From NCBI GenBank assembly GCA_964619725.1, contig CAZUFC010000001.1, positions 140,396 to 204,395 on the forward strand: DNA of 64,000 nt, in the 5' to 3' direction. Within the stretch, counting starts at the first letter, position 1. Each line of letters starts with the position of its first letter. A program made the translations under genes and the position numbers. The DNA is from an uncultured bacterium. Its GTDB lineage: Bacteria; CSSED10-310; CAZUFC01. The notes under the pieces were generated by a model that made no database searches, had not been told where the DNA came from, and saw only the letters and a list, made by a program, of their open reading frames with translations. Shown piece after piece: positions 37,635 to 57,511 of this stretch.

Positions 37635-40600
37635 ATGAAAACCAAAAGGCTGAAGGGAATTACCGCTCTCTTTTTGATATTTTCAGCCTGCATTTGCGCG
37701 GCTGATCAAAATGAATTATGGTCACAGGACAATTTTGTTTCTGATGCCTGGTACTTTGATAAGTATTTTAACCGGACGGAACGCTTTAAGGTAGAAGGAA
37801 CAGAAATAATCGTCAAACTGGACGAATATGATGTCGCGAAATCAACGCTGCTGGCTTCGGTTTATGATATTGAGGAACTCCATGCATTGGACGAAGAATA
37901 TTATTTCGTTCATTACCGGATTCCGTTAAAAAAGGACATATGGGCTGTTTTAAAGCGTATTAATGCAGAAAAGGATGTTGCTTCTGCCTTTCCCGTTTTA
38001 ATTGACATGAGAGGAGCGAAGAAACCGGTTGTGGGAAATGAAATGACCGTGCGTTTTATTTCAGGACTGACGGAATCGGCATGTGAGGCGATAATTGAGG
38101 AGATGGGCAGTCGTGTGGTTCAGGACCATTGGACTCCGGGTTATTATACGATAACGGTTCCTGCCGGGATGACTTTATTTGAAGGAATACGGGCTTACAA
38201 TGCCCGTTCGGACGTTAAATTCGCAGAATTTTTTCTGATAGGTTATGACGACGCATTATTCATTCCGAATGATCCTGACTTTGATGATCAACAGAATTTA
38301 TTGAATACGGGCCAGGTGCCGTCGTGCGACGATTGTCCCCCGTTCGGAGATCATGACATAGACGCAGTTACGGCCTGGGACATAACCCGGGGCGATCCCG
38401 ACATCATAGTGACTATTATCGATTCGGGATGTGATTTGGATCATCCCGATCTCGTGGATAATTATCTGGACCGTGACGGAGAGGATTGGAATTTTGCGAG
38501 CACGAGCAGCGACGTCCCTGAAGACACCTACGGCCACGGCACGTCCTGTGCCGGCATAGCGGCAGCAGTGAGCGACAATGCAGAGGGAGTGGCGGGAATA
38601 GCGAATCACTGCCGCATTATGCCTTTGAAAATTGACCTTTCTTCAGGCGCCAATCAGAACAGAGCGGATGCGATTAATTACGCAGCCAGTCGTATAGGAG
38701 ATTTCGACGGTATCGTTATGAGCAACAGTTGGCGAATGAGTTCAGGTTCTTATACGGCGGTGTATGCAGCGATTGAAAGCGCCAAGGCTGCGGGTTGCGT
38801 GGTCTGCTTTGCAGCGGGAAATGAGAATCAATCCCCGGTGGAAGCGCCATCGGACAGCGAACATTGCATCTGTGTGGGAGCGTTAAGTCCTTGCGATGAA
38901 AGAAAAAGTTACAGCAGTTGCGACGGTGAATCCTGGGGATCAAGCTACGGGAACGCCCTGGATGTCGCAGCGCCCGGCGTGTTGATTCATACGACGGAAA
39001 TAGGAGGCGGATACACTGGAACGTTCAATGGAACATCCAGCGCCTGCCCGCATGTGGCTGGAGTTTGTGCGTTAATATTGTCGATAGCTCCTAATTTGAC
39101 GCCTGATGAACTTCAGGAGGCGCTGCAGGATGGATGCGACGATATTGATCCTCCAGGTTGGGATACGGAAACAGGTTACGGGCGGGTAAACGCATATAAT
39201 TCACTCAATCTGGTTTCAGGCGTTTTCATGAATAAAAAAGCCTACCAATGCGAAGACACCGTCTATGTTTCAGTCAGAGACTCAGAGCAGTCCGTCAGTA
39301 TTGAAGTCGAAGTCACCAGCAATACGGAAACTTTAGGTGAAACATTGACTCTACTCGAGATTCCGGGAGATGCCGGTTTATTTGAAGGCTCAATCGTATG
39401 CTCGGAAATACCTCCCTCTTCAGGAGACGATATTATTTCAGTCGTTCATGGCGATGAAATTACAGTTTATTACCCCGCACTAGACAAATCAGCATCATCC
39501 GCCGTTGATTGCTCTGCTCCGGACATATCCGAAGCGACGCTCGATAATATCGGCGATATCTTCGTTGAAATTTCGTGGGCAACCGATGAACCGGCTACGA
39601 CAAAAATCGTTTACGGTATAGGAACGCCCGATCAGTTTTATGAAGATTATGAATTGACTGATGCACATGAAGTGAGAATCGACGGCTTAACCGACTGCGA
39701 AAATTATGTTTTTTACGTAGAATCTTCTGACGCCGCCGGCAATACGGCCATCGACGACAACGGAGGAACATATTACTCCTTTACGACTCAAGATCGCGTC
39801 ATTTTGCTCGAAGCCGATATGGATACCGATCCCGGCTGGTCGACCGACGGACTCTGGGAATGGGGTCAGCCTGCGGGACAGGGCGGAGACCACGGAGGAC
39901 CGGACCCGAGTTCGGGTCATACGGGAAATAATGTTTATGGGTATAATCTGAACGGCGATTACACAAACTATATGGGCGAAACGGACCTGACTACGCCGGC
40001 TTTCGATTGCAGCAATGCCGATAATGTTAAATTGAGTTTCTATCGGTGGCTCGGAGTGGAACGAAGCTATTACGATCATGCTTACCTGAGAATATCCACG
40101 AACGGTTCCTCCTGGACGACTGTCTGGCAGAATCCCGACGCAGAAACTTATGACGGGCAATGGGTCCTTTACGAATACGACATAAGTCAATTTGCCGACG
40201 GAGAACCTGCCGTTTACCTGAAATGGGTTATGGGAACAACGGATTCAGCCTGGGTTTATTGCGGCTGGAACATCGACGACGTGGTCGTCTCTTACACCAT
40301 CCCATGCCAGACTTCACCTACGCCCACTGCTCCACCCACCTTTACTCCGACTCTCACTCCTACGGCTACACCTACCAGAACACCCACCTATTCGCCCACT
40401 CCCACACTTTCGCCGACGCTTTCACCTACCGCCACATTAACCCCCACCACCACCACCACCGTTACCCTCTCTCCAACCTGCTCGCCGTCTTTAACGCCGA
40501 CCGATCCGCCTTCCTATACTCCCACAGTAATCATCACTGCGACGCCATCTATAACTCCAACTTTAATTGAATTCACGCCTTCCGTTACACCTACTCATCC

Positions 40601-40961
40601 TCTGGAAGTCGGGGTGGAATTGATCATCAGCGATGAAATGTTTCATCCGGGAATGCTTTTCGAGCTTAAAGCTTTTATAGAAAATCCAGGTCCAGAAACA
40701 TACGAAGAACAACCTTTCGTCATTCTTCTCGATGTACTGGGCATGTACTTCTATTACCCGTTCTGGGATACAACCTTCTCCTTCGAACCCCTTAATCTGG
40801 GCGTCGAAACAATAGAGAAAAATATACTGACGTTTACCTGGCCGGAAACGGGCGAAGCAGCGCTCGACGGCATAGTCTTCTACGGCGCACTGCTTACCAG
40901 TGACTTTAACGATATCCTGGGAAGATTCGATGCTGAAGAATTTGGCTATGGACCCGAATGA
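37635..40961 (+). CDS. Secreted S8 subtilase with FN3-like and jelly-roll domains, P/T linker and shared C-terminal domain
   Basis: Signal peptide; IIDSG, HGTSCAG, GTSSACP triad; PT linker; FTWPE...FGYGPE. Confidence 0.9.
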   Translation: MKTKRLKGITALFLIFSACICAADQNELWSQDNFVSDAWYFDKYFNRTERFKVEGTEIIVKLDEYDVAKSTLLASVYDIEELHALDEEYYFVHYRIPLKKDIWAVLKRINAEKDVASAFPVLIDMRGAKKPVVGNEMTVRFISGLTESACEAIIEEMGSRVVQDHWTPGYYTITVPAGMTLFEGIRAYNARSDVKFAEFFLIGYDDALFIPNDPDFDDQQNLLNTGQVPSCDDCPPFGDHDIDAVTAWDITRGDPDIIVTIIDSGCDLDHPDLVDNYLDRDGEDWNFASTSSDVPEDTYGHGTSCAGIAAAVSDNAEGVAGIANHCRIMPLKIDLSSGANQNRADAINYAASRIGDFDGIVMSNSWRMSSGSYTAVYAAIESAKAAGCVVCFAAGNENQSPVEAPSDSEHCICVGALSPCDERKSYSSCDGESWGSSYGNALDVAAPGVLIHTTEIGGGYTGTFNGTSSACPHVAGVCALILSIAPNLTPDELQEALQDGCDDIDPPGWDTETGYGRVNAYNSLNLVSGVFMNKKAYQCEDTVYVSVRDSEQSVSIEVEVTSNTETLGETLTLLEIPGDAGLFEGSIVCSEIPPSSGDDIISVVHGDEITVYYPALDKSASSAVDCSAPDISEATLDNIGDIFVEISWATDEPATTKIVYGIGTPDQFYEDYELTDAHEVRIDGLTDCENYVFYVESSDAAGNTAIDDNGGTYYSFTTQDRVILLEADMDTDPGWSTDGLWEWGQPAGQGGDHGGPDPSSGHTGNNVYGYNLNGDYTNYMGETDLTTPAFDCSNADNVKLSFYRWLGVERSYYDHAYLRISTNGSSWTTVWQNPDAETYDGQWVLYEYDISQFADGEPAVYLKWVMGTTDSAWVYCGWNIDDVVVSYTIPCQTSPTPTAPPTFTPTLTPTATPTRTPTYSPTPTLSPTLSPTATLTPTTTTTVTLSPTCSPSLTPTDPPSYTPTVIITATPSITPTLIEFTPSVTPTHPLEVGVELIISDEMFHPGMLFELKAFIENPGPETYEEQPFVILLDVLGMYFYYPFWDTTFSFEPLNLGVETIEKNILTFTWPETGEAALDGIVFYGALLTSDFNDILGRFDAEEFGYGPE

Positions 40962-41340: not shown

Positions 41341-41844
41341 TCATTTCCTTTCATTACTTCCCAACCTGAAAATTTTTCTCATCTGTTTAACGTGATACGT
41401 TACATTTGCCGCTGAAATTCCAAGTATCCCGCCGATTTCCCGGCGTGTATATTCCTTCTGCAATAAAATGAGTATCTCTCTTTTTTTTTCGTTCAAACGT
41501 TTGAAAAAAATAAACAGAGGCATTGTAGACGATCCGCTTGTTTCCCTCTCCGGAACATTTTCCATGAATACCAGATCATTCCGGCTCCGCCTTCTTATAT
41601 AATCCAGCATCCGCCATCGCGCCTTCTTTAATAAATAAAATTGAGGTTTCCCTATCTTCACGTCTACTTCCCTTAATGCTTCAAATACTCCAACCCATCC
41701 CTCCTGCTCCAAATCGTTCCTGTCAGCTCCCGTCCTCATCGACAACGATACCGCATAATGCCTTACGGACCTCCGTAGCCGCTCTACTAGAACCCGTCGC
41801 GCTCCAGAATCGCCGCAAGCAGCCGCTTCAATAAATTGATGCAT
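41341..41844 (-). CDS. Alternative sigma70-family factor (regions 2 and 4 only; ECF/SigH-like)
   Basis: AACGD..ARRVLV; DLEQEGWVGVFEA; RMLDYIRR; C-terminal HTH EIGGILGISAANV; RBS favours ATG 41844. Confidence 0.8.
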   Translation of the reverse strand: MHQFIEAAACGDSGARRVLVERLRRSVRHYAVSLSMRTGADRNDLEQEGWVGVFEALREVDVKIGKPQFYLLKKARWRMLDYIRRRSRNDLVFMENVPERETSGSSTMPLFIFFKRLNEKKREILILLQKEYTRREIGGILGISAANVTYHVKQMRKIFRLGSNERK

Positions 41845-41926
41845 CGATCCCTTCCTCAAAATTCAGTCTAGTTTCTTCCCTCTCGAAAAGCTCCGGTTTC
41901 TCCGGGATCAATCATCCACTATTAAG

Positions 41927-41992: not shown

Positions 41993-42277
41993 CGTATTCC
42001 TCCTTTCTGATAAATTTGACTCATCACAGTCTCATAATATATATCGCACAAAAACCACGTTTTGTTAAAATTTTATTTTCGATGATGTACTGATAATTCA
42101 AATGTGATTATGAAACCTTTATTTGCAATTCCTTGAAAGCACAATTCAAATATTTTGAATTCGAAGAACAAGTAGCCGGAAGCCGATTTTTCAGCGGGAA
42201 CAACTTTTAATTTATTGTTAAATAAACTTTTTAAAATTTTCTTTTTCGGGTGGGACAATTTAGGCTAATTGCTGAAT

Positions 42278-42310
42278 TCAAATTTTTTGAAAAAAATTCA
42301 AAAAATTTGA
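42278..42310. promoter_or_regulatory. Tandem TCAA-N5-TTGA palindromes (putative bEBP enhancer), copy 1
   Basis: Sites at 42278-42290 and 42298-42310 (20-bp period); extra site at 42146-42158; same arrangement at 57254-57286. Confidence 0.7.
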
Positions 42311-42364: not shown

Positions 42365-42380
42365 TGGCACGAAAAATGCT
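42365..42380 (+). promoter_or_regulatory. sigma54 (-24/-12) promoter
   Basis: TGGCACGAAAAATGCT (GG-N10-GC). Confidence 0.75.
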
Positions 42381-42390
42381 TAATGAATAT

Positions 42391-42570
42391 CGTCAGCTTC
42401 GGACCGAAAGCAGACATTCTTATAAGCTCGGCGGAAGGCAGGGGGCGTGCTTCAAAAAAGCAGCCAGGCTGCGGAACCGAAGTATGCCCGCGGTGGAGGA
42501 AAGAAAAGGCTGAAAGCCGGGCGGGGGAGGGCCCAATAAAAGGGGGACGGTGCGTTTTACACCTCCAATG
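42391..42570 (+). ncRNA. Putative structured sigma54-dependent ncRNA, copy 1 (3' end uncertain)
   Basis: Homologous to 56960-57160(-); covarying 11-bp stem 42443-42453/42479-42489; 26/27-nt conserved block 42508-42534. Confidence 0.65.
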
Positions 42571-42994
42571 CTTAACAGGCAATGATTTGCGATCACAAAA
42601 AACGGAACCGGACGTTGCCGCCAGAATAATGTTTGAATAAAGGTATGGCGGGAAAGTCCTGGAATTATTCAGCGGTTGTCCTCTATTTCGGCTTATTTGC
42701 GGAAGAGTCTGCTTGCGACAGATGGTCAGAAAAGGCACGGCAGTATGAAGAGTCAGAAAAAAGTAAATCTATCGAACGGGTTCCAGCAGCGCCGAATTTG
42801 CATCATAAAAATAACTGATTTCAGGCGACATCACTCAATCTTTGCTTAAAAGTCCCGGATCACGATAAGAAGCGAATGATCAGGGCGTCGTCCTGCAAGA
42901 ATGTTCTACCCGGTCCTTCAATAAAAATAATTTGGAGACGCTCCAATATTCCACCGACCCGTTCATCCGCTCTTCTGCACATCCAAGCTTCCAG

Positions 42995-44566
42995 TCAGCG
43001 ACTGTCCACAAACTTATTTTTTAGGGTTGATGAGAGTCCGATCACATTGCCTGGATTCAATAAAAAATCGGGATCGAACTCTTTTTTTACGGCGCTGATT
43101 TCCTTAAGCGCTTTTTTTCCGTACATCAATTGCAGATAAGGAACGCTGTTTCCGTTTATGACAATCGTTTTTTTTCCGACCCCGTGTTCTCCTGATATGG
43201 AGCCTTTAAATGCAACGGCTTTCTGCGCCAGCTTCACATACAATTTATCGACGAAATCTCGTTCCTTCTGCGACTCAGTAATAAAGTTGCAGTGAAGGTG
43301 GTAATCGCCGATATGGCCGAATATCAGGTAATGAAAGCCTTGTCTGGGAAAGTTTCTTTTGAATTCTTCCCCGGCCTTTTTATAAGCGGCGAACATTTCC
43401 GGGAATTTTTCCGGCGGCACGACGAAATCGGTTCCCAGTTTTTTGCTGTTCTTCTTTCTGATCATGCTGTTTATTTCATCCGGAAGGGTATGCCGAAATT
43501 CCTTTAATTCGCGGAATTGTTGCTGATTTTGAGCATACCAGTCCGCTGCCGAACCGTTTTTTTGCGCCGTTTCCATAAGCCATTCCAATTTTTCATCGTC
43601 CGTATAGATCATTTCGATAAAAACTCCGGCTTTCCAAACCGGATCAATCAGAGAGTATTTCTGCTGCAAAAGCGAGAGAGCATTTTCATCAAAAAACTCG
43701 ATTGCTGATATTCCTTTGTTTTTTGCCGATCTCATTTTATCAATGAAATCCAGGGATTTTGATTCTTCGTCAAAAAAATTTACTCCCTGTAAAACATTCT
43801 TAGGCGTATCGGCCAGTACAAGGGTTAATTCGGCCGTTACGCCGAATATTCCTTCGCTGCCGATAAACAGGTCTATCAGGTCCATATTCGGTCTGACGTA
43901 AAGACCGGCCGCGTTTTTGATTTTTGGAGAATCGTATGAAGGCAGAGTGAATGAGTATTTTTTTCCCGAATCCGATGCCAATGAAAAGCGGCGTTCGTTA
44001 TCTGCGAATATTTTACCTCTTTCCAGGGAAAGCAATTCCCCGTCAGGTAAAACAACGGTCATGGACTGAATCCATTCTCTTGTCGGTCCGTAGTAGAAAC
44101 TGTGAGCCCCTGAAGCGTTAGTTGCAGCGGTTCCTCCTGCGGATGCGCTCCATTCTGTAGGGTCCGGAGGATAAAAAAATTCAGCCGGCAAAAGACGGCT
44201 TATGTTGTCCAGAGAAACGCCTGGAGCGACCGTGAGCGTTTTTCTGCACTGATTCAACTGCGCCTTTAAAACGCCTTCCGATGTTTTTTCTTCAATAAGT
44301 TCCGCATTTTTATCATTTTCAATTGAAAGCATTTTTTCCATCGCCAGGACTATACCTCCGAATAACGGAGTTCTCGCTCCCGTTATCCCGGTTCCGGCGC
44401 CTGAAATCGTGCAAAAAACTCGATCTCGACGGCAATCCTTTATAACGGATACAATATCGTCTATCGATTCAGGGAAATATATTCCTTGAACATCCGTTTC
44501 ATCAGCCCGGAAAATATTGCTTTCATCTGATGTATAATTCCTAATCACATTTCGATTTTTGATCAT
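42995..44566 (-). CDS. FAD-binding oxidoreductase (GlcD/D-lactate dehydrogenase family)
   Basis: GAGTG, YPPDP, GGTAATNASG, FIGSEG, FGHIGD..LH, SGEHGVGK, LNPG; start uncertain. Confidence 0.88.
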   Translation of the reverse strand: MIKNRNVIRNYTSDESNIFRADETDVQGIYFPESIDDIVSVIKDCRRDRVFCTISGAGTGITGARTPLFGGIVLAMEKMLSIENDKNAELIEEKTSEGVLKAQLNQCRKTLTVAPGVSLDNISRLLPAEFFYPPDPTEWSASAGGTAATNASGAHSFYYGPTREWIQSMTVVLPDGELLSLERGKIFADNERRFSLASDSGKKYSFTLPSYDSPKIKNAAGLYVRPNMDLIDLFIGSEGIFGVTAELTLVLADTPKNVLQGVNFFDEESKSLDFIDKMRSAKNKGISAIEFFDENALSLLQQKYSLIDPVWKAGVFIEMIYTDDEKLEWLMETAQKNGSAADWYAQNQQQFRELKEFRHTLPDEINSMIRKKNSKKLGTDFVVPPEKFPEMFAAYKKAGEEFKRNFPRQGFHYLIFGHIGDYHLHCNFITESQKERDFVDKLYVKLAQKAVAFKGSISGEHGVGKKTIVINGNSVPYLQLMYGKKALKEISAVKKEFDPDFLLNPGNVIGLSSTLKNKFVDSR

Positions 44567-44978
44567 TTTCGGCAGCACAGGATTAATCCTCAGCAACGTT
44601 TGAAAGAAAACGTTCAGCATCGGTTTGAATACACTTTCTCCCCTGTCGCAAACGCCCCCCTTCCCTTGCAGTATCAATTTAAACCAGAAAACCCGCATTT
44701 ATCAAATTTCTTCTTATCGCTCAAACGAATTGATGCTGATCATCCCTTTCATGGCCAGTTTTTGTCGTTAAACCGCAGCGCCTGTCCAGCATAAAATTTT
44801 GAATTGAGATTCGAGTTTGTGGACAGGCGCCGGCTAGAATAGAGTGAAAACAGGACATCAGAATCAGATTAGATTTTCGCATCAATTATTTTTGGAAGCC
44901 GTCATTCTTCTGAAGTGTTTGAATTTCGGGAGCTTTATCTCTTATAATCATGGATGTTAAATCGGAAAGGTCGGATCA

Positions 44979-53199: not shown

Positions 53200-54780
53200 T
53201 CAGTTATCGCAATGAAAATCAATTTCTTCAAAAACTTGCGCTTCAAAAACAAAAAAATTCATGTCTGATTTCCAGGCATCAGCAGGAAGTCCTGCTTTTC
53301 GAGAAAGCTGACGAAGCGTTTCCTCTATCTCCCAACCTTGCTCAGGCGCCACTTGTGGGAGAAAAACAGCCGAACGGCCATTTTTAAATATTTGAATTCC
53401 ATGTTTGCCGATAACTATATCATCTTTGGATTCCACGGGTTTCAGAGGCGTCAGCACGGAAATTTCTATTTCGATATCTTTCAGTTCCCCGGGCTGAACC
53501 GGCGGAAATCTGTGATCATTAACCGCCGCATTTACAGCGTTATCGATGATGGTCCGCCATAACGGCTTCACAGGTTGAATATATCCGATGCAACCTCGAA
53601 GACGTCCGTTCTTCTTCAAAGTGACGAAAGCCCCTCTTTTTTCTTCAAACAAACTCTCGGTAGATTCGAAATCAGATTTTTTGCGCTCGGTGACATAAGA
53701 ATTCAATGTCCTTCTGGCCAGCTTTATCAATACGCTCTTTTGCCGCTGATTCAGTTTACCGCCTGAATTAAGCTCTTCCCCGGCGCTCGCTTTTTCCGCA
53801 TCAGAGTCTCTTTGGATTTCCTGTTCTTCCGATGCTTGATAAAAAGCCGCAGCGCCGTAACCGACGACTTGTTTTGAATCTCCATATGGACTGTCCGCAG
53901 AATTGGAATAATGCAGCAAAATCCCCTTATCCGCCCCTAATGCTTTACTTAATCGCATTACAGTCATTACAGCAGTGTTCCCGCACATGGGAGTCTGGAG
54001 ATTGGGGACCCCAGCCTTCATGCTTTCATTCAATGTTTTCGCCAAGTGAGAATCATCCAGAGAACAGACAGCTTCCAGAGTTTTTTTGTCTGTTCTCTTC
54101 GCCTGTTTTTCCGGCGGATAATGAGACAGATCACTGCTAGCAACAAGCAGCACATCTCTCCCTTTCAGCGACTCAGGCAGTTTTTGAATTATTGATGCCT
54201 GAGTATTCATAGAATCATAACCGAATAAAACAGGAACGATTTTAATATCATCATAAATAGTTTGCAGAAAAGGCAATTCAACTTCAATACTGTGTTCCGC
54301 CGTATGAGCTCCAGGAATAAAAGAAATATGCTTATCCATCTCCGCAATCTCTTCCGCCAGCTCTCTGTCGATAGTGACAACTCCCAGAGGAGTCCGGTAT
54401 CCTTCCCCCAAATAGACCGATGCTCCTTTGAAATGCGCCCGATGTGCATCTCCAAACAGTATAACCGTGTCGACTTTTCTTGCTTTAACCGCTTTGAATC
54501 CGTGCGCAGCCGTCAGTCCGCTGAAAACATATCCGGCATGCGGAACCATAATGCCTAAAATCTTGCCTTTCACTTCCGGGGGCGATGCATCAGACAGATG
54601 TGCACCCACCGTTTTTTTCAATTCCTCAGCTTCATCAGGATAAAACGCTCCAGTAACCGCCGGCGCACGAATATTTTTTGATTCTGCTCCCGCACAAATT
54701 TGTCCGCTCAGCGCAACTATAATGAAAATGAAAATCAATAAAGAATTCCGTTGACGATCGACTCTTTTCAAAATATTCAT
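53200..54780 (-). CDS. amrB: Signal-peptide-bearing AmrB (MEMO1)-AmrA (AMMECR1) fusion
   Basis: AAGGAG before ATG 54780; hydrophobic N-terminus; PAVTGAFYP, PHAGYVFSG, EHSIEV, SSDLSH, VVGY; then GAFVTL..LRGCIG. Confidence 0.88.
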   Translation of the reverse strand: MNILKRVDRQRNSLLIFIFIIVALSGQICAGAESKNIRAPAVTGAFYPDEAEELKKTVGAHLSDASPPEVKGKILGIMVPHAGYVFSGLTAAHGFKAVKARKVDTVILFGDAHRAHFKGASVYLGEGYRTPLGVVTIDRELAEEIAEMDKHISFIPGAHTAEHSIEVELPFLQTIYDDIKIVPVLFGYDSMNTQASIIQKLPESLKGRDVLLVASSDLSHYPPEKQAKRTDKKTLEAVCSLDDSHLAKTLNESMKAGVPNLQTPMCGNTAVMTVMRLSKALGADKGILLHYSNSADSPYGDSKQVVGYGAAAFYQASEEQEIQRDSDAEKASAGEELNSGGKLNQRQKSVLIKLARRTLNSYVTERKKSDFESTESLFEEKRGAFVTLKKNGRLRGCIGYIQPVKPLWRTIIDNAVNAAVNDHRFPPVQPGELKDIEIEISVLTPLKPVESKDDIVIGKHGIQIFKNGRSAVFLPQVAPEQGWEIEETLRQLSRKAGLPADAWKSDMNFFVFEAQVFEEIDFHCDN

Positions 54781-55167
54781 TATGTTCTCTCCTTTGTTCG
54801 ATTTGCTTAGCCCCTTTATCACAGGGAATAATAGTTTATCAAAAAAATATTTATATGAAAAACCACATGAAGACGAACCCTTGATTGTTCCGCTGAAACA
54901 TCGGACTGAATTTCGACTAATATATCGAATGATATCGAATGAAAAAATTCGCTGCCTGATGCATTGCCAGGTAGAATCTCCGGCCCTGTTCAGAAAATTA
55001 TTTATACTTCTGTTTGACTGACATCTCAGAAAAGAATCGATAATGCTGTTGAACAAAGGCCCTAAAAAATTTAAGATAGCTGAGGAGATGAACTTCGGAT
55101 TCGAGGATGTGACATCCTGGAATAATCAATACTTCATGAACAGTAAGGTTAAAACAGGGAAAACGAA

Positions 55168-56847
55168 TTGAAAAAAAACCTCTTTTTGTCGGGGCTTATG
55201 CTGTTATTGATTTTGCTGGTTCGCCTTTTGCACCCCTTCGCAGACCCTCCAGCGGACTTAAGTTGGAGCGGCGGTTACTACAGCGATGAAGGTTTCTGGA
55301 CCCACAACGCCAGAAACGCAGTCCTTTTCGGGAAAGCCGTTCAAGACGACTGGAATAATATGTTCATCAGTCCTCTGATTCACTTTGTCCATCTGGCTGT
55401 TTTTAAAATTTTCGGAGTAGGGATGATGCAGGCGAGAATACCGGTAATTCTCATTTCTCTTTTATCATTTTTTTTCCTTCTTCTTACCCTCCGGTCTGAT
55501 TTTAAAAGAGCTGACGCTCTCCTGGGCGTAAGTCTGGCCGGCTTCAATTATATCCTTATCATGTATAATCGATTGTCGCTTCTTGAGACGCCGATATTGT
55601 TTTTTATAATCATGAGCCTTTTTTTATGGAGAAAAGGGCTGCGGAATGAAAGCCGGATGTATTTCATTTTATGCGGTCTTACTTTAGCCGCTGCCTACAT
55701 GACTAAAACGACCTCGATTTTTTTTCCGGCATCTTTGCTTTTTGCTGCATATTTTTCGAGTTATAAGACAAATGCTGAAAGAAGCAGAATTTTCTTTACG
55801 CGTATAACCTATTTAGCAACAGGAGCGATTTTACCCTTGTCCATATGGTTCTTTTGGCACTATCTTCCCCATCAATCTTTCATTCAGGCTTATAGTGATT
55901 ATTATCGATCTCAACAGAACTCAACTATCTATGGAATAATTAAAAATATTGCTTTTCAGCCTTTTTTCATTTATTTCGCCCGAACCCCTGTACTGCTTTA
56001 TATGGCTTGGACAGCTGTCCCTGCTTTAGTACACAGCCTCTTCGTCAAAAAAGAACGGGGCAAACCGGTCGTAGTCGCAGCTTTTTTCTGGCTTTTATGC
56101 GAGGCGGGCATGCTCAGTCTGTTCGGGTACCGTCCCCTGAGATATTATTTACCCATCATAATTCCCATGTGCATTATTTCTCTTGAATGGCTCACCGCAT
56201 TAAAAAATGAAAATAAAATCATGAACGTCAATATCTCCGTCGTCATTTTTTTTATTATATGGTGGGCTGTTCCGGCACTGGAATGGAGCGGTATGATTGC
56301 TGTGAAATTCAGCTCCTTTTTCGAGCCGCCGGCTTTTTTCACGAACCCGGCCATACCCTGGACTGGCGGCGCCGTTTTTCTTTTTTTAACTGCAGCAAGC
56401 GCAATTCTTTTAATCTTACATTCAAAGAAAAAATTTTTCTCCGATCCCTGCTTCTTGAAAGCGATATTCATGCTGATCCTGACTCTTTATGCTCTGTCCA
56501 ATGGAATTCAATACCTGAACTGGGCTCTGTCTCCGTCTCACGACGTCAGAGACGCCTCTTCAGACTTGAAAAAAATTCCCGATGCCGCAGTGATCGCAGG
56601 GCAATGGGCTCCCCAGTTGTGTTTATGCAATGAACTACAGGCCGTTCCATTATGGAAAAACTATGTGAATGATGAAAATCCCTTTCAACGGTTCCAGGTT
56701 ACTCATCTTCTTTCCTGGCAATATCAATGGGGCGATGAATACAAATATCATCATGATTGGTTTCCCGATGTTATGGCAAGATCAAAAAAAATAAAAACTT
56801 ACAGAATCAAAAATTCGAACGTCATTTTAACGCAAATATTTCCATGA
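55168..56847 (+). CDS. GT-C fold membrane glycosyltransferase (ArnT/GT39-like)
   Basis: DEGFWTHNARN; R...LET; TK; RYY; many TM helices. Confidence 0.78.
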   Translation: MKKNLFLSGLMLLLILLVRLLHPFADPPADLSWSGGYYSDEGFWTHNARNAVLFGKAVQDDWNNMFISPLIHFVHLAVFKIFGVGMMQARIPVILISLLSFFFLLLTLRSDFKRADALLGVSLAGFNYILIMYNRLSLLETPILFFIIMSLFLWRKGLRNESRMYFILCGLTLAAAYMTKTTSIFFPASLLFAAYFSSYKTNAERSRIFFTRITYLATGAILPLSIWFFWHYLPHQSFIQAYSDYYRSQQNSTIYGIIKNIAFQPFFIYFARTPVLLYMAWTAVPALVHSLFVKKERGKPVVVAAFFWLLCEAGMLSLFGYRPLRYYLPIIIPMCIISLEWLTALKNENKIMNVNISVVIFFIIWWAVPALEWSGMIAVKFSSFFEPPAFFTNPAIPWTGGAVFLFLTAASAILLILHSKKKFFSDPCFLKAIFMLILTLYALSNGIQYLNWALSPSHDVRDASSDLKKIPDAAVIAGQWAPQLCLCNELQAVPLWKNYVNDENPFQRFQVTHLLSWQYQWGDEYKYHHDWFPDVMARSKKIKTYRIKNSNVILTQIFP

Positions 56848-56959: not shown

Positions 56960-57160
56960 TGAAATGCCGCCGCCGGATAAAAGACCCACCGGGCCGGACA
57001 ATCCTCCCCCCTTTTTTCGGGCCCTCCCCCGCCCGGGTTTCAGCCCCGGGCATGCTTCCTTCACGGGCGCAGCTCTTCACCGGATCAGAAGGGTCTGAAC
57101 CGCGCCCCCTTTCCCAACCATTAAGGAGTAGTTGTCTTCGTGCGGGCCGCAACTAGACGG
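56960..57160 (-). ncRNA. Putative structured sigma54-dependent ncRNA, copy 2 (3' end uncertain)
   Basis: Homologous to 42391-42570; 11-bp stem 57107-57097/57075-57065; conserved block 57045-57019. Confidence 0.65.
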
Positions 57161-57170
57161 TATAAAACAA

Positions 57171-57186
57171 AGCATATTTCATGCCT
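57171..57186 (-). promoter_or_regulatory. sigma54 (-24/-12) promoter
   Basis: Minus strand AGGCATGAAATATGCT (GG-N10-GC), at the same position relative to the RNA as in copy 1. Confidence 0.7.
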
Positions 57187-57216: not shown

Positions 57217-57253
57217 TTATTAATAAATGAAATTTGGAACCATGGTGCAAAAG

Positions 57254-57286
57254 TCAAAATTTTTGAATTTTTTTCAAATTTCTTGA
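57254..57286. promoter_or_regulatory. Tandem TCAA-N5-TTGA palindromes (putative bEBP enhancer), copy 2
   Basis: Sites at 57254-57266 and 57274-57286 (20-bp period); extra site at 57340-57352. Confidence 0.7.
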
Positions 57287-57511
57287 CCCTCTCTGTCAAT
57301 AAATTCATTTTCACAATATGTTACGCATTGATGCAGCATTCAAAAAATTTGAACTAAAAAAGTGCGGCATTATGGCGTCGATCCAATTACTCAGATTCTT
57401 GAAATCAATTGAAAAACAGGCGGTTATCATGGATCATCATAAATGAGAGAAAAAGAGATTGAAAAAATGATAATTTCCATTTGCTCAGTCCCCGAATTTC
57501 GCATCCTGTAA

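Follow-up and report, generated by a model that had tools for sequence, protein, structure and literature searches.

A 64,000-nucleotide stretch of DNA from an uncultured bacterium of the CSSED10-310 lineage (contig CAZUFC010000001.1, positions 140,396 to 204,395; hereafter the window) carries two similar loci, which a first-pass annotation had described as a two-copy, sigma-54-driven structured non-coding RNA. Copy 1 lies on the plus strand at 42388..42552 (covariance-model match G000:C1:182783-182947, E 1.1e-39) and may extend to about 42580-42590; copy 2 lies on the minus strand at 57001..57162 (G000:C1:197396-197557, E 3.9e-35). Each is preceded by a sigma-54-type promoter of GG-N10-GC geometry. 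For copy 1 this is TGGCACGAAAAATGCT at 42365..42380 (plus strand), with the -12 C at 42379 and a predicted +1 at C42391; for copy 2 it is AGGCATGAAATATGCT at 57171..57186 (minus strand), with a predicted +1 at C57160. Both start sites are those originally proposed. The annotation had placed the beginning of the homology at +1, and the RNAs are indeed homologous from there, but the promoters are conserved too, as is a 34-bp palindrome block about 70 bp upstream of each, which it had not mentioned. A pairwise alignment of the two copies contains the expected block of 26 identical positions out of 27, which ends in GGGGGAGGGCCC and is followed by an A-tract and a G-run.

The genome was assembled from the metagenome of a microbial mat (9.17 Mb in 344 contigs; 90.9% complete, 6.5% contamination). 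We searched it with a covariance model built from the family's own copies (R1), together with BLAST. Instead of two members, the family proved to have nine, with E values from 1e-33 to 1e-45, and nothing further appeared down to E = 1. Two copies are on contig C1, both inside the window, and the others are on C9, C17, C18, C26, C135, C185 and C205. Mean column identity in the nine-copy alignment is 71%, so that the copies are best regarded as old paralogues. Each comprises about 160 conserved bases and closes with the invariant 12-mer GGGGGAGGGCCC (42523..42534, plus strand, in copy 1; 57019..57030, minus strand, in copy 2). This 12-mer is exact in all nine RNAs and occurs nowhere else in the genome: nine occurrences against 0.6 expected on both strands of 9.17 Mb. 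Since homology between the closer pairs of paralogues extends to about +170 to +198, the transcript may exceed the modelled 160 nt. Conservation is arranged in islands, namely the palindrome block, the promoter and the RNA, and the spacer between palindromes and promoter is unalignable in most pairs of copies. Two DNA read sets contained no sequence variants in the RNA loci; they come from the same strain and thus add no population covariation. We consider it highly probable that the nine loci are a real, structured RNA gene family.

The family matched no catalogued RNA, as the annotation had supposed. With Rfam 15, no match reached the gathering threshold in the whole 64-kb window, and in E-value mode (E up to 10) both loci gave chance-level matches only. 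The models that failed to match include Qrr (RF00378; neither at the gathering threshold nor at E up to 10), GlmY/GlmZ, 6S, SRP, tmRNA, RNase P, the known riboswitches and CsrB/Rsm. The source genome is the sole representative of its family in the genome set examined, where its phylum has 13 other species genomes (60-96% complete); R1 found nothing credible in these (best E 0.058) and no credible homologue in 47 other genomes. Weak matches in G031 and G046 were rejected as false, as they lie inside a coding region and inside a tmRNA, respectively. The latter (L012:1501-1581, in the tmRNA pseudoknot region, 17.8 bits) resembles the GGAAGG-GGGGGCG...CGCCCG...CCCGAA part of the family, a likeness that we take to be chance or convergence between G-rich helices. 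A loose pattern, GGGGGC..GCCCG..GGGGGAGGGCCC, was found in at least 113 and at least 120 stretches of genome and metagenome contigs, respectively, mostly from high-GC genomes. Among the 233 matches listed, none fits R1 at E <= 0.01, the best being L237 (E 0.084). The pattern of the 3' module gave four matches in 400 further genomes, all without the A-rich loop, compared with seven for a reversed control, and none in viral contigs. A full-text search of the published literature, within the portions of articles that it covered, returned nothing resembling the family. If transcribed, the RNA of about 160-190 nt looks like a previously uncatalogued family.

Predicted fold and covariation

RNAalifold, single-sequence folding and arm-by-arm duplex energies all agree on four helices, P1-P4. 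P1 is a predicted 5' hairpin (42392..42415 on the plus strand in copy 1, where covariation and arm energies back it; 57134..57158 on the minus strand in copy 2, from arm energies). P2, which had been missed by the annotation, is a long-range helix between a pyrimidine-rich 5' segment (for example CUUAC-GUCCG) and CGGAC-GUGGG, a partner whose position carries the 3' strand of the helix into the first Gs of the 12-mer. The strands in copy 1 are GCUCGGC at 42426..42432 (arm energies and centroid fold) and GCCGGGC at 42516..42522 (arm energies). P2 occurs in two registers relative to the 12-mer, with four copies in each, and forms a covarying helix in eight of the nine copies; copy 2 has in its place a local hairpin, GCCCGGG/CCCGGGC (57031..57051, minus strand; single-sequence fold), which replaces the inner P2, plus CUCCUU/GGGGAG. 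P3 is a weak helix that pairs GGAAGGC with GCC..CC. The long hairpin P4 has an invariant closing GGGC/GCCC. It spans 42443..42489 in copy 1 (GGGCGUGCUUC ... GAAGUAUGCCC, with a distal stem GCAGC/GCUGC; covariation and arm energies) and 57065..57107 on the minus strand in copy 2 (GGGCGCGGUUC ... GAGCUGCGCCC; arm energies). The 11-bp helix of the annotation, formed by these same arms, is thus present in both window copies.

Two segments are predicted to be largely single-stranded. Between P4 and P3, 13-19 purine-rich nucleotides are mostly unpaired, with a mean unpaired probability of 0.39-0.88 across copies and 0.88 in copy 1, where they occupy 42490..42508. The A-rich loop 3' of the 12-mer is unpaired in every predicted ensemble; in copy 1 this loop and the G-run, which contain a candidate P5 (CCC/GGG), lie at 42535..42546.

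Across the nine sequences, 90.7% of the 225 alignment cells pair, as compared with 29-54% when the 3' side is displaced by 1-3 columns. Covariation scored 0.268, and shuffled alignments 0.178; none of 500 shuffles reached the observed value. The second P2 register gave 89.1% pairing and a score of 0.261 against 0.168. The annotation's claim of covarying stems, drawn from two copies, therefore extends to nine, in P1, P2 and P4. The U-A to G-C swap that it had seen in the 5' hairpin corresponds to alignment pair 14-22, which is UA in six copies and GC in three. Double changes also affect pairs 66-105 (AU in five, GC in three, GU in one), 67-104 (UA in four, CG in two, GC in one, UG in one) and 42-140 (CG in four, UA in three, UG in two), and pair 43-141 is changed on both sides as well. 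The C17 copy retains the P1 hairpin with a different stem sequence. Helix arms pair better with their own partners than with swapped ones: -11.9 versus -8.8 kcal/mol for P1, -16.0 versus -13.0 kcal/mol for P2 and -24.9 versus -20.1 kcal/mol for P4. Pair 68-103 is G-U in six of the nine copies, and G-U occupies 28 of the 225 cells, which fits the promoter strand as the RNA strand.

Two other structures were considered and set aside. The annotation had drawn a GGGC/GCCC stem displaying a GGGGGAGG loop. This stem is feasible in only five of the nine copies (the other four have GGAC-GU), lacks covariation and competes with P2, in which eight of the nine copies use the same stretch. A G-quadruplex built from four G-runs was also dropped, as three Gs of the first run stack beneath covarying P4 pairs.

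Promoters, palindrome sites and a proposed shared regulon

The sigma-54 promoter is present in all nine copies as GGCA(C/T)-N6-TGC, with GG-N10-GC geometry and at a fixed distance from P1. GGCA and TGC are invariant and the spacer is variable; the general sigma-54 consensus is TGGCAC-N5-TTGCW. The genome has one rpoN (a Sigma54_DBD gene) and about 37 strong matches to Sigma54_activat. The upstream block consists of two TTCAAA-N3-TTTGAA palindromes spaced 20 bp centre to centre. These tandem palindromes lie about 55-75 bp upstream of the promoter in eight copies and about 246 bp upstream in one, and a third palindrome is usually found 64-145 bp from them. In copy 1, the tandem palindromes (TTCAAA-N3-TTTGAA, N5, TTCAAA-N3-TTTGA), a putative enhancer-binding protein (EBP) site, are at 42277..42310 and the third, by motif match, at 42145..42159; in copy 2, they are at 57253..57286, with two mismatches to the pattern, and 57339..57353, the latter again a motif match. 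Variation is confined to the spacers, where only A and T are found, and the half-sites are invariant; selection on a protein-binding site would leave such a pattern. The stretch from palindromes to promoter repeatedly contains an IHF-like motif, CAAT-R-N2-TTA / TAACTTATTG, and in at least six RNA copies the motif appears again about 40-60 nt past the G-run; both observations were made by eye.

The double palindrome occurs at 22 sites in the genome, nine at the RNAs and 13 elsewhere. At no more than one mismatch there are 20 sites, against none for a reversed-pattern control, and the 13 same-phylum genomes contain none. Away from the RNAs, ten of the 13 sites are followed at 163-289 bp by a sigma-54-like promoter. 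Six of these promoter-bearing sites precede a 226-aa gene whose product matches Y1_Tnp, the best model, below its cut-off, being that of the REP-associated tyrosine transposase (RAYT). The RAYT-like gene copies (L254, L256, two in L257, L258 and L259; contigs C5, C12, C22, C27 and C35) each have the tandem and third palindromes, a sigma-54-like promoter and a strong AAAGGAGG ribosome site; sigma-54 control of a RAYT is an unusual arrangement. The same enhancer, followed by a perfect TGGCAC-N5-TTGCT promoter, precedes genes for a ComEA-like HHH protein and then SSB in tandem (L260:844-1585, contig C43), a pair that hints at a DNA-uptake or single-strand-DNA theme in the regulon. Genes for an EF-hand protein and a DUF3006 protein also stand behind palindromes with sigma-54-like promoters, and one of the three sites that lack a promoter match stands ahead of a gene for a 1043-aa PMP-repeat/beta-helix protein. 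From these shared motifs we read the 22 sites as one putative EBP regulon. When the 22 positions were compared with those of the approximately 37 activator matches, no EBP gene adjoined a palindrome site.

Two abundant repeats were seen in the same genome. One is a REP/MITE-like palindromic repeat, GTGAC-TGTCCAGCATTAAATTTTGAAT...TGGACAG-TCAC, found in the window at 44760-44832 and in about 319 places genome-wide; its read depth in the source run is about 20-fold in excess, copies are frequently located at the ends of contigs, and it may be a substrate of the RAYT-like transposases. The other lies outside the window (G000:C1:130129 and about 150 further places) and has about 60 conserved nucleotides around TTCAAAACTTTTGAC, followed by a variable run of the hexamers GGTATC/GGGGTC/GCAATC. 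Its core resembles the enhancer half-sites, the 15-mer pattern having 177 matches with the enhancer sites included.

The RAYT link raises an alternative in which the nine loci act as DNA: cargo-carrying, REP- or PATE-like elements that spread to nine sites and whose single-stranded structures are handled by the RAYT-like HUH transposases. The palindrome block shared with six RAYT-like genes, the abundance of palindromic repeats (families of about 319 and about 150-177 copies) and the asymmetry of G-T wobbles, which would suit single-stranded DNA also, are in keeping with this. The copies, however, are old and diverged (71% identity) and carry compensatory changes, and are not near-identical as recent insertions are. 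Palindromes are confined to the upstream side, no second end is seen, and the flanks are not shared. The contrast between fixed half-sites and variable spacers in these palindromes is the mark of a protein-binding site under selection. The sigma-54 promoter, moreover, keeps its distance in all nine. Because the copies are old, the palindromes one-sided and the promoter fixed, we regard a mobile element as improbable. Still more of an outside chance is that the nine RNAs form the RNA component of a DNA-handling programme under one sigma-54 activator, induced along with the six RAYT-like HUH nucleases, the ComEA-like DNA receptor and the SSB. They would bind or guide the HUH enzymes or regulate their action on the genome's hundreds of REP-like hairpins. 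A protein would then hold the RNA by the invariant G-rich module, and specificity would come from the variable tip of P4. Such an RNA-assisted Y1/HUH system is not known to have been described, though no search aimed at it was made.

Gene context and coding potential

Both window copies face convergent genes, as annotated: copy 1 an FAD-linked oxidase gene (42995-44698, minus strand) and copy 2 a PMT_2-family glycosyltransferase gene (55168-56847, plus strand). The minus strand upstream of copy 1, opposite to the RNA, encodes an ECF-type sigma factor (41341-41859); other genes in the window include a subtilase (37635-40961) and a Memo/AMMECR1 fusion (53200-55056). In the genome as a whole, six of the nine copies face a convergent downstream gene at a distance of 154-832 nt, and the remaining three are followed, 126-307 nt downstream, by unrelated same-strand open reading frames (ORFs) of 107-132 aa. 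No downstream gene or class of gene is common to the nine. With six convergent neighbours and three unrelated downstream ORFs, the loci are better read as stand-alone genes than as riboswitches, in line with the annotation.

These arrangements bear on whether the element could be a cis-acting 5' leader or encode a small protein on its antisense strand. The three same-strand ORFs speak for a leader, but they are unrelated to one another, and the other six copies face convergent genes. As for a protein, one antisense frame is free of stops in six of the nine copies, but few antisense stops are expected anyway because that strand is pyrimidine-rich. The distance from GGGGGC, at the P4 foot, to the 12-mer (82, 79, 82, 82, 82, 81, 76, 73 and 79 nt in the nine copies) is 1 mod 3 in eight of nine, though its two sub-distances vary in phase. 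Against coding, the copies do not agree on the frame at the invariant GCCCG anchor (distance mod 3 of 0, 2, 1, 1, 0, 2, 2, 2 and 0), only four of the nine have an antisense ORF of 90 aa or longer and these ORFs start at different places, and the substitutions in the stems are compensatory. We therefore reject an antisense small protein; codon-level conservation had been named as a finding that would overturn the RNA, and no reading frame is conserved across the copies. Taken together, we hold a leader or antisense-encoded protein to be very improbable.

Mode of action and relation to known RNAs

A set of diverged genes that share one sigma-54 enhancer and an invariant stretch but have no gene linked to them is the arrangement of Qrr and, at the promoter level, of glmY/glmZ, and on this ground we read the nine RNAs as trans-acting. 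We think it probable that the family is sigma-54/EBP-dependent and acts in this way. In the explanation that we propose, the two window loci belong to a set of nine paralogues, each a free-standing gene that specifies a folded non-coding RNA of about 160-190 nt. Each would be read by sigma-54 RNA polymerase and switched on when one EBP binds the tandem palindromes together with the third. The RNA would fold into the P1 hairpin and one long irregular hairpin (P2, the weak P3 and P4) with the purine-rich bulge of 13-19 nt single-stranded, and the 3' strand of P2 would run into GGGGGAGGGCCC, followed by the A-rich loop and the G-run. The nine RNAs would then be the post-transcriptional arm of an EBP regulon that includes the RAYT-like genes and the ComEA-like/SSB operon. 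Their invariant 3' G-rich module would be the effector, pairing with C/U-rich stretches of target RNAs as in sibling small RNAs (sRNAs) such as Qrr. Although no Hfq was detected, G-C pairing of this strength should depend little on a chaperone.

Known systems offer precedents for this design. Qrr1-5 of Vibrio are paralogous stand-alone sRNAs of about 100 nt, each with a sigma-54 promoter and an upstream site for the EBP LuxO. The present family shares with them the paralogous stand-alone genes, the individual sigma-54 promoters, the upstream site for one EBP and an absolutely conserved stretch. It differs in having no similarity of sequence or structure, a greater length (about 160-190 nt versus about 100 nt), nine copies, a different upstream site, a conserved stretch that is G-rich and partly paired, and no detected Hfq. 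The sibling-sRNA logic that the annotation had suggested is thus stronger, at nine copies, than it had proposed. GlmY and GlmZ of Enterobacteria have sigma-54 promoters, three GlrR sites and IHF-like sites, and one of the two acts via protein binding. Here, too, homologous structured RNAs have sigma-54 promoters with three EBP-type sites and IHF-like sites upstream, whereas the sequence is unrelated and the members number nine rather than two. As no Rfam model matches, membership in the Qrr and the glmY/glmZ families fails. The Brt family of Bartonella has about nine copies. Brt RNAs are a structured multicopy family reported to stand in tandem with genes for DNA-binding proteins (PMC5387305). 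The two are alike as lineage-restricted, multicopy structured RNAs and differ in that our family has no common downstream gene, its common feature being the sigma-54/EBP promoter.

A conserved fold of several helices is at least as suited to an RNA that binds protein as to one that works by base pairing, and the same data can be read in that way. The nine co-induced genes would supply a decoy or scaffold of the GlmY/RapZ, CsrB/CsrA, CrcZ/Hfq-Crc or 6S type, which titrates or assembles a protein to which the fold presents the G-rich module, the A-rich loop and the purine-rich bulge. Consistent with this, the architecture is held by compensatory changes across more than 100 nt; the four base pairs of the GGGC/GCCC P4 foot and the 12-mer are invariant, though pairing alone would permit change; predictions leave the A-rich loop unpaired in every case and the purine linker for the most part (0.39-0.88); the linker has a triplet rhythm (GAAGAAGAAG, GGAGGUGGAG); and our search for base-pairing targets came up empty. 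The candidate proteins are where this alternative falters. No protein in the genome reaches the Pfam cut-off for Hfq. The obvious reader of GGA, CsrA, is encoded by a single gene 18 bp from fliW on the same strand, an operon-like pair (G000:C7:53364-53893), and only one GGA of the RNA is invariant. Of the two genes that the annotation had proposed to look for, csrA is present, beside fliW, and hfq was not detected. We regard protein binding as less likely than not, but as the likeliest of the alternatives.

The annotation's specific suggestion, that GGA and GGAGG motifs sequester CsrA or, as a Shine-Dalgarno mimic, the 3' end of 16S rRNA, fares less well. GGAGG does occur within the invariant 12-mer, GGAAGG occurs in six of the nine copies, a further linker GGA occurs in three to four, and the genome has one csrA. 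But GGAAGG is replaced by GGUUGG in the other three copies, and the one invariant GGA is partly buried in P2, whereas known sponges display many GGAs in loops. A csrA gene beside fliW points to a CsrA under the control of FliW and flagellin and makes antagonism by an sRNA less probable. CrcZ and CrcY of Pseudomonas and CsrB/RsmX/Y/Z are multicopy decoys; CrcZ is sigma-54/CbrB-dependent and has A-rich motifs, and the Csr/Rsm RNAs have GGA motifs. Our family is multicopy like these and shares the sigma-54 link with CrcZ, but each RNA has a single invariant GGA and a single A-rich loop, csrA lies beside fliW, no Hfq was detected and the family has no Rfam match to CsrB/Rsm. With csrA beside fliW and a single invariant GGA, the sponge idea is weakened, and we consider it, together with the mimic, improbable.

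Several results weigh against the explanation that we propose. The number of double-change pairs is not significant, the five observed being matched by 142 of 500 shuffles, and nine related sequences can beat a shuffle control without real structure. Folding energy is unremarkable (z = -2.13 for copy 1 and -0.35 for copy 2). The own arms of P3 pair no better than swapped arms (-7.1 versus -6.8 kcal/mol), and P5 (CCC/GGG) is invariant and without covariation, so that it is unproven as a helix. The GGGGGAGGG part of the 3' module is only partly accessible in the predicted ensembles (mean unpaired 0.2-0.65). A simple scan of the nine copies found no canonical terminator, and a terminator-like hairpin with a U-run at copy 2 only (56975..56995, minus strand; a consensus match alone). 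The genome offered no target: the best complementary sites are scattered, patternless 9-mers, the exact complement of the 12-mer is absent elsewhere, and exact matches to any part of the RNA are at chance level (the best an 18-mer, E 0.017). Duplex energies with the 5' untranslated regions of the regulon were no better than with shuffled ones. Finally, all support comes from paralogues in one metagenome-assembled genome known by its DNA alone.

Weighing these points, we lean slightly towards base pairing over protein binding as the way in which the RNAs work, and hold it as a tentative view. The explanation as a whole, nine stand-alone, sigma-54/EBP-driven, trans-acting RNAs that pair through a G-rich module, is in our judgement the best available, although we would put it a little short of an even chance.

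The value of the family is limited for now, as it has been seen in one uncultured genome. If transcribed, it would be an uncatalogued structured RNA family with unusually clear internal evidence, in the form of nine diverged paralogues with compensatory changes, and a well-defined regulatory input, one enhancer site common to 22 promoters. If our explanation is true, the design of sibling sRNAs under one sigma-54 activator would extend to a poorly sampled phylum and be linked there to an unusual regulon, in which RAYT transposases that look domesticated are joined by proteins of the DNA-uptake type.

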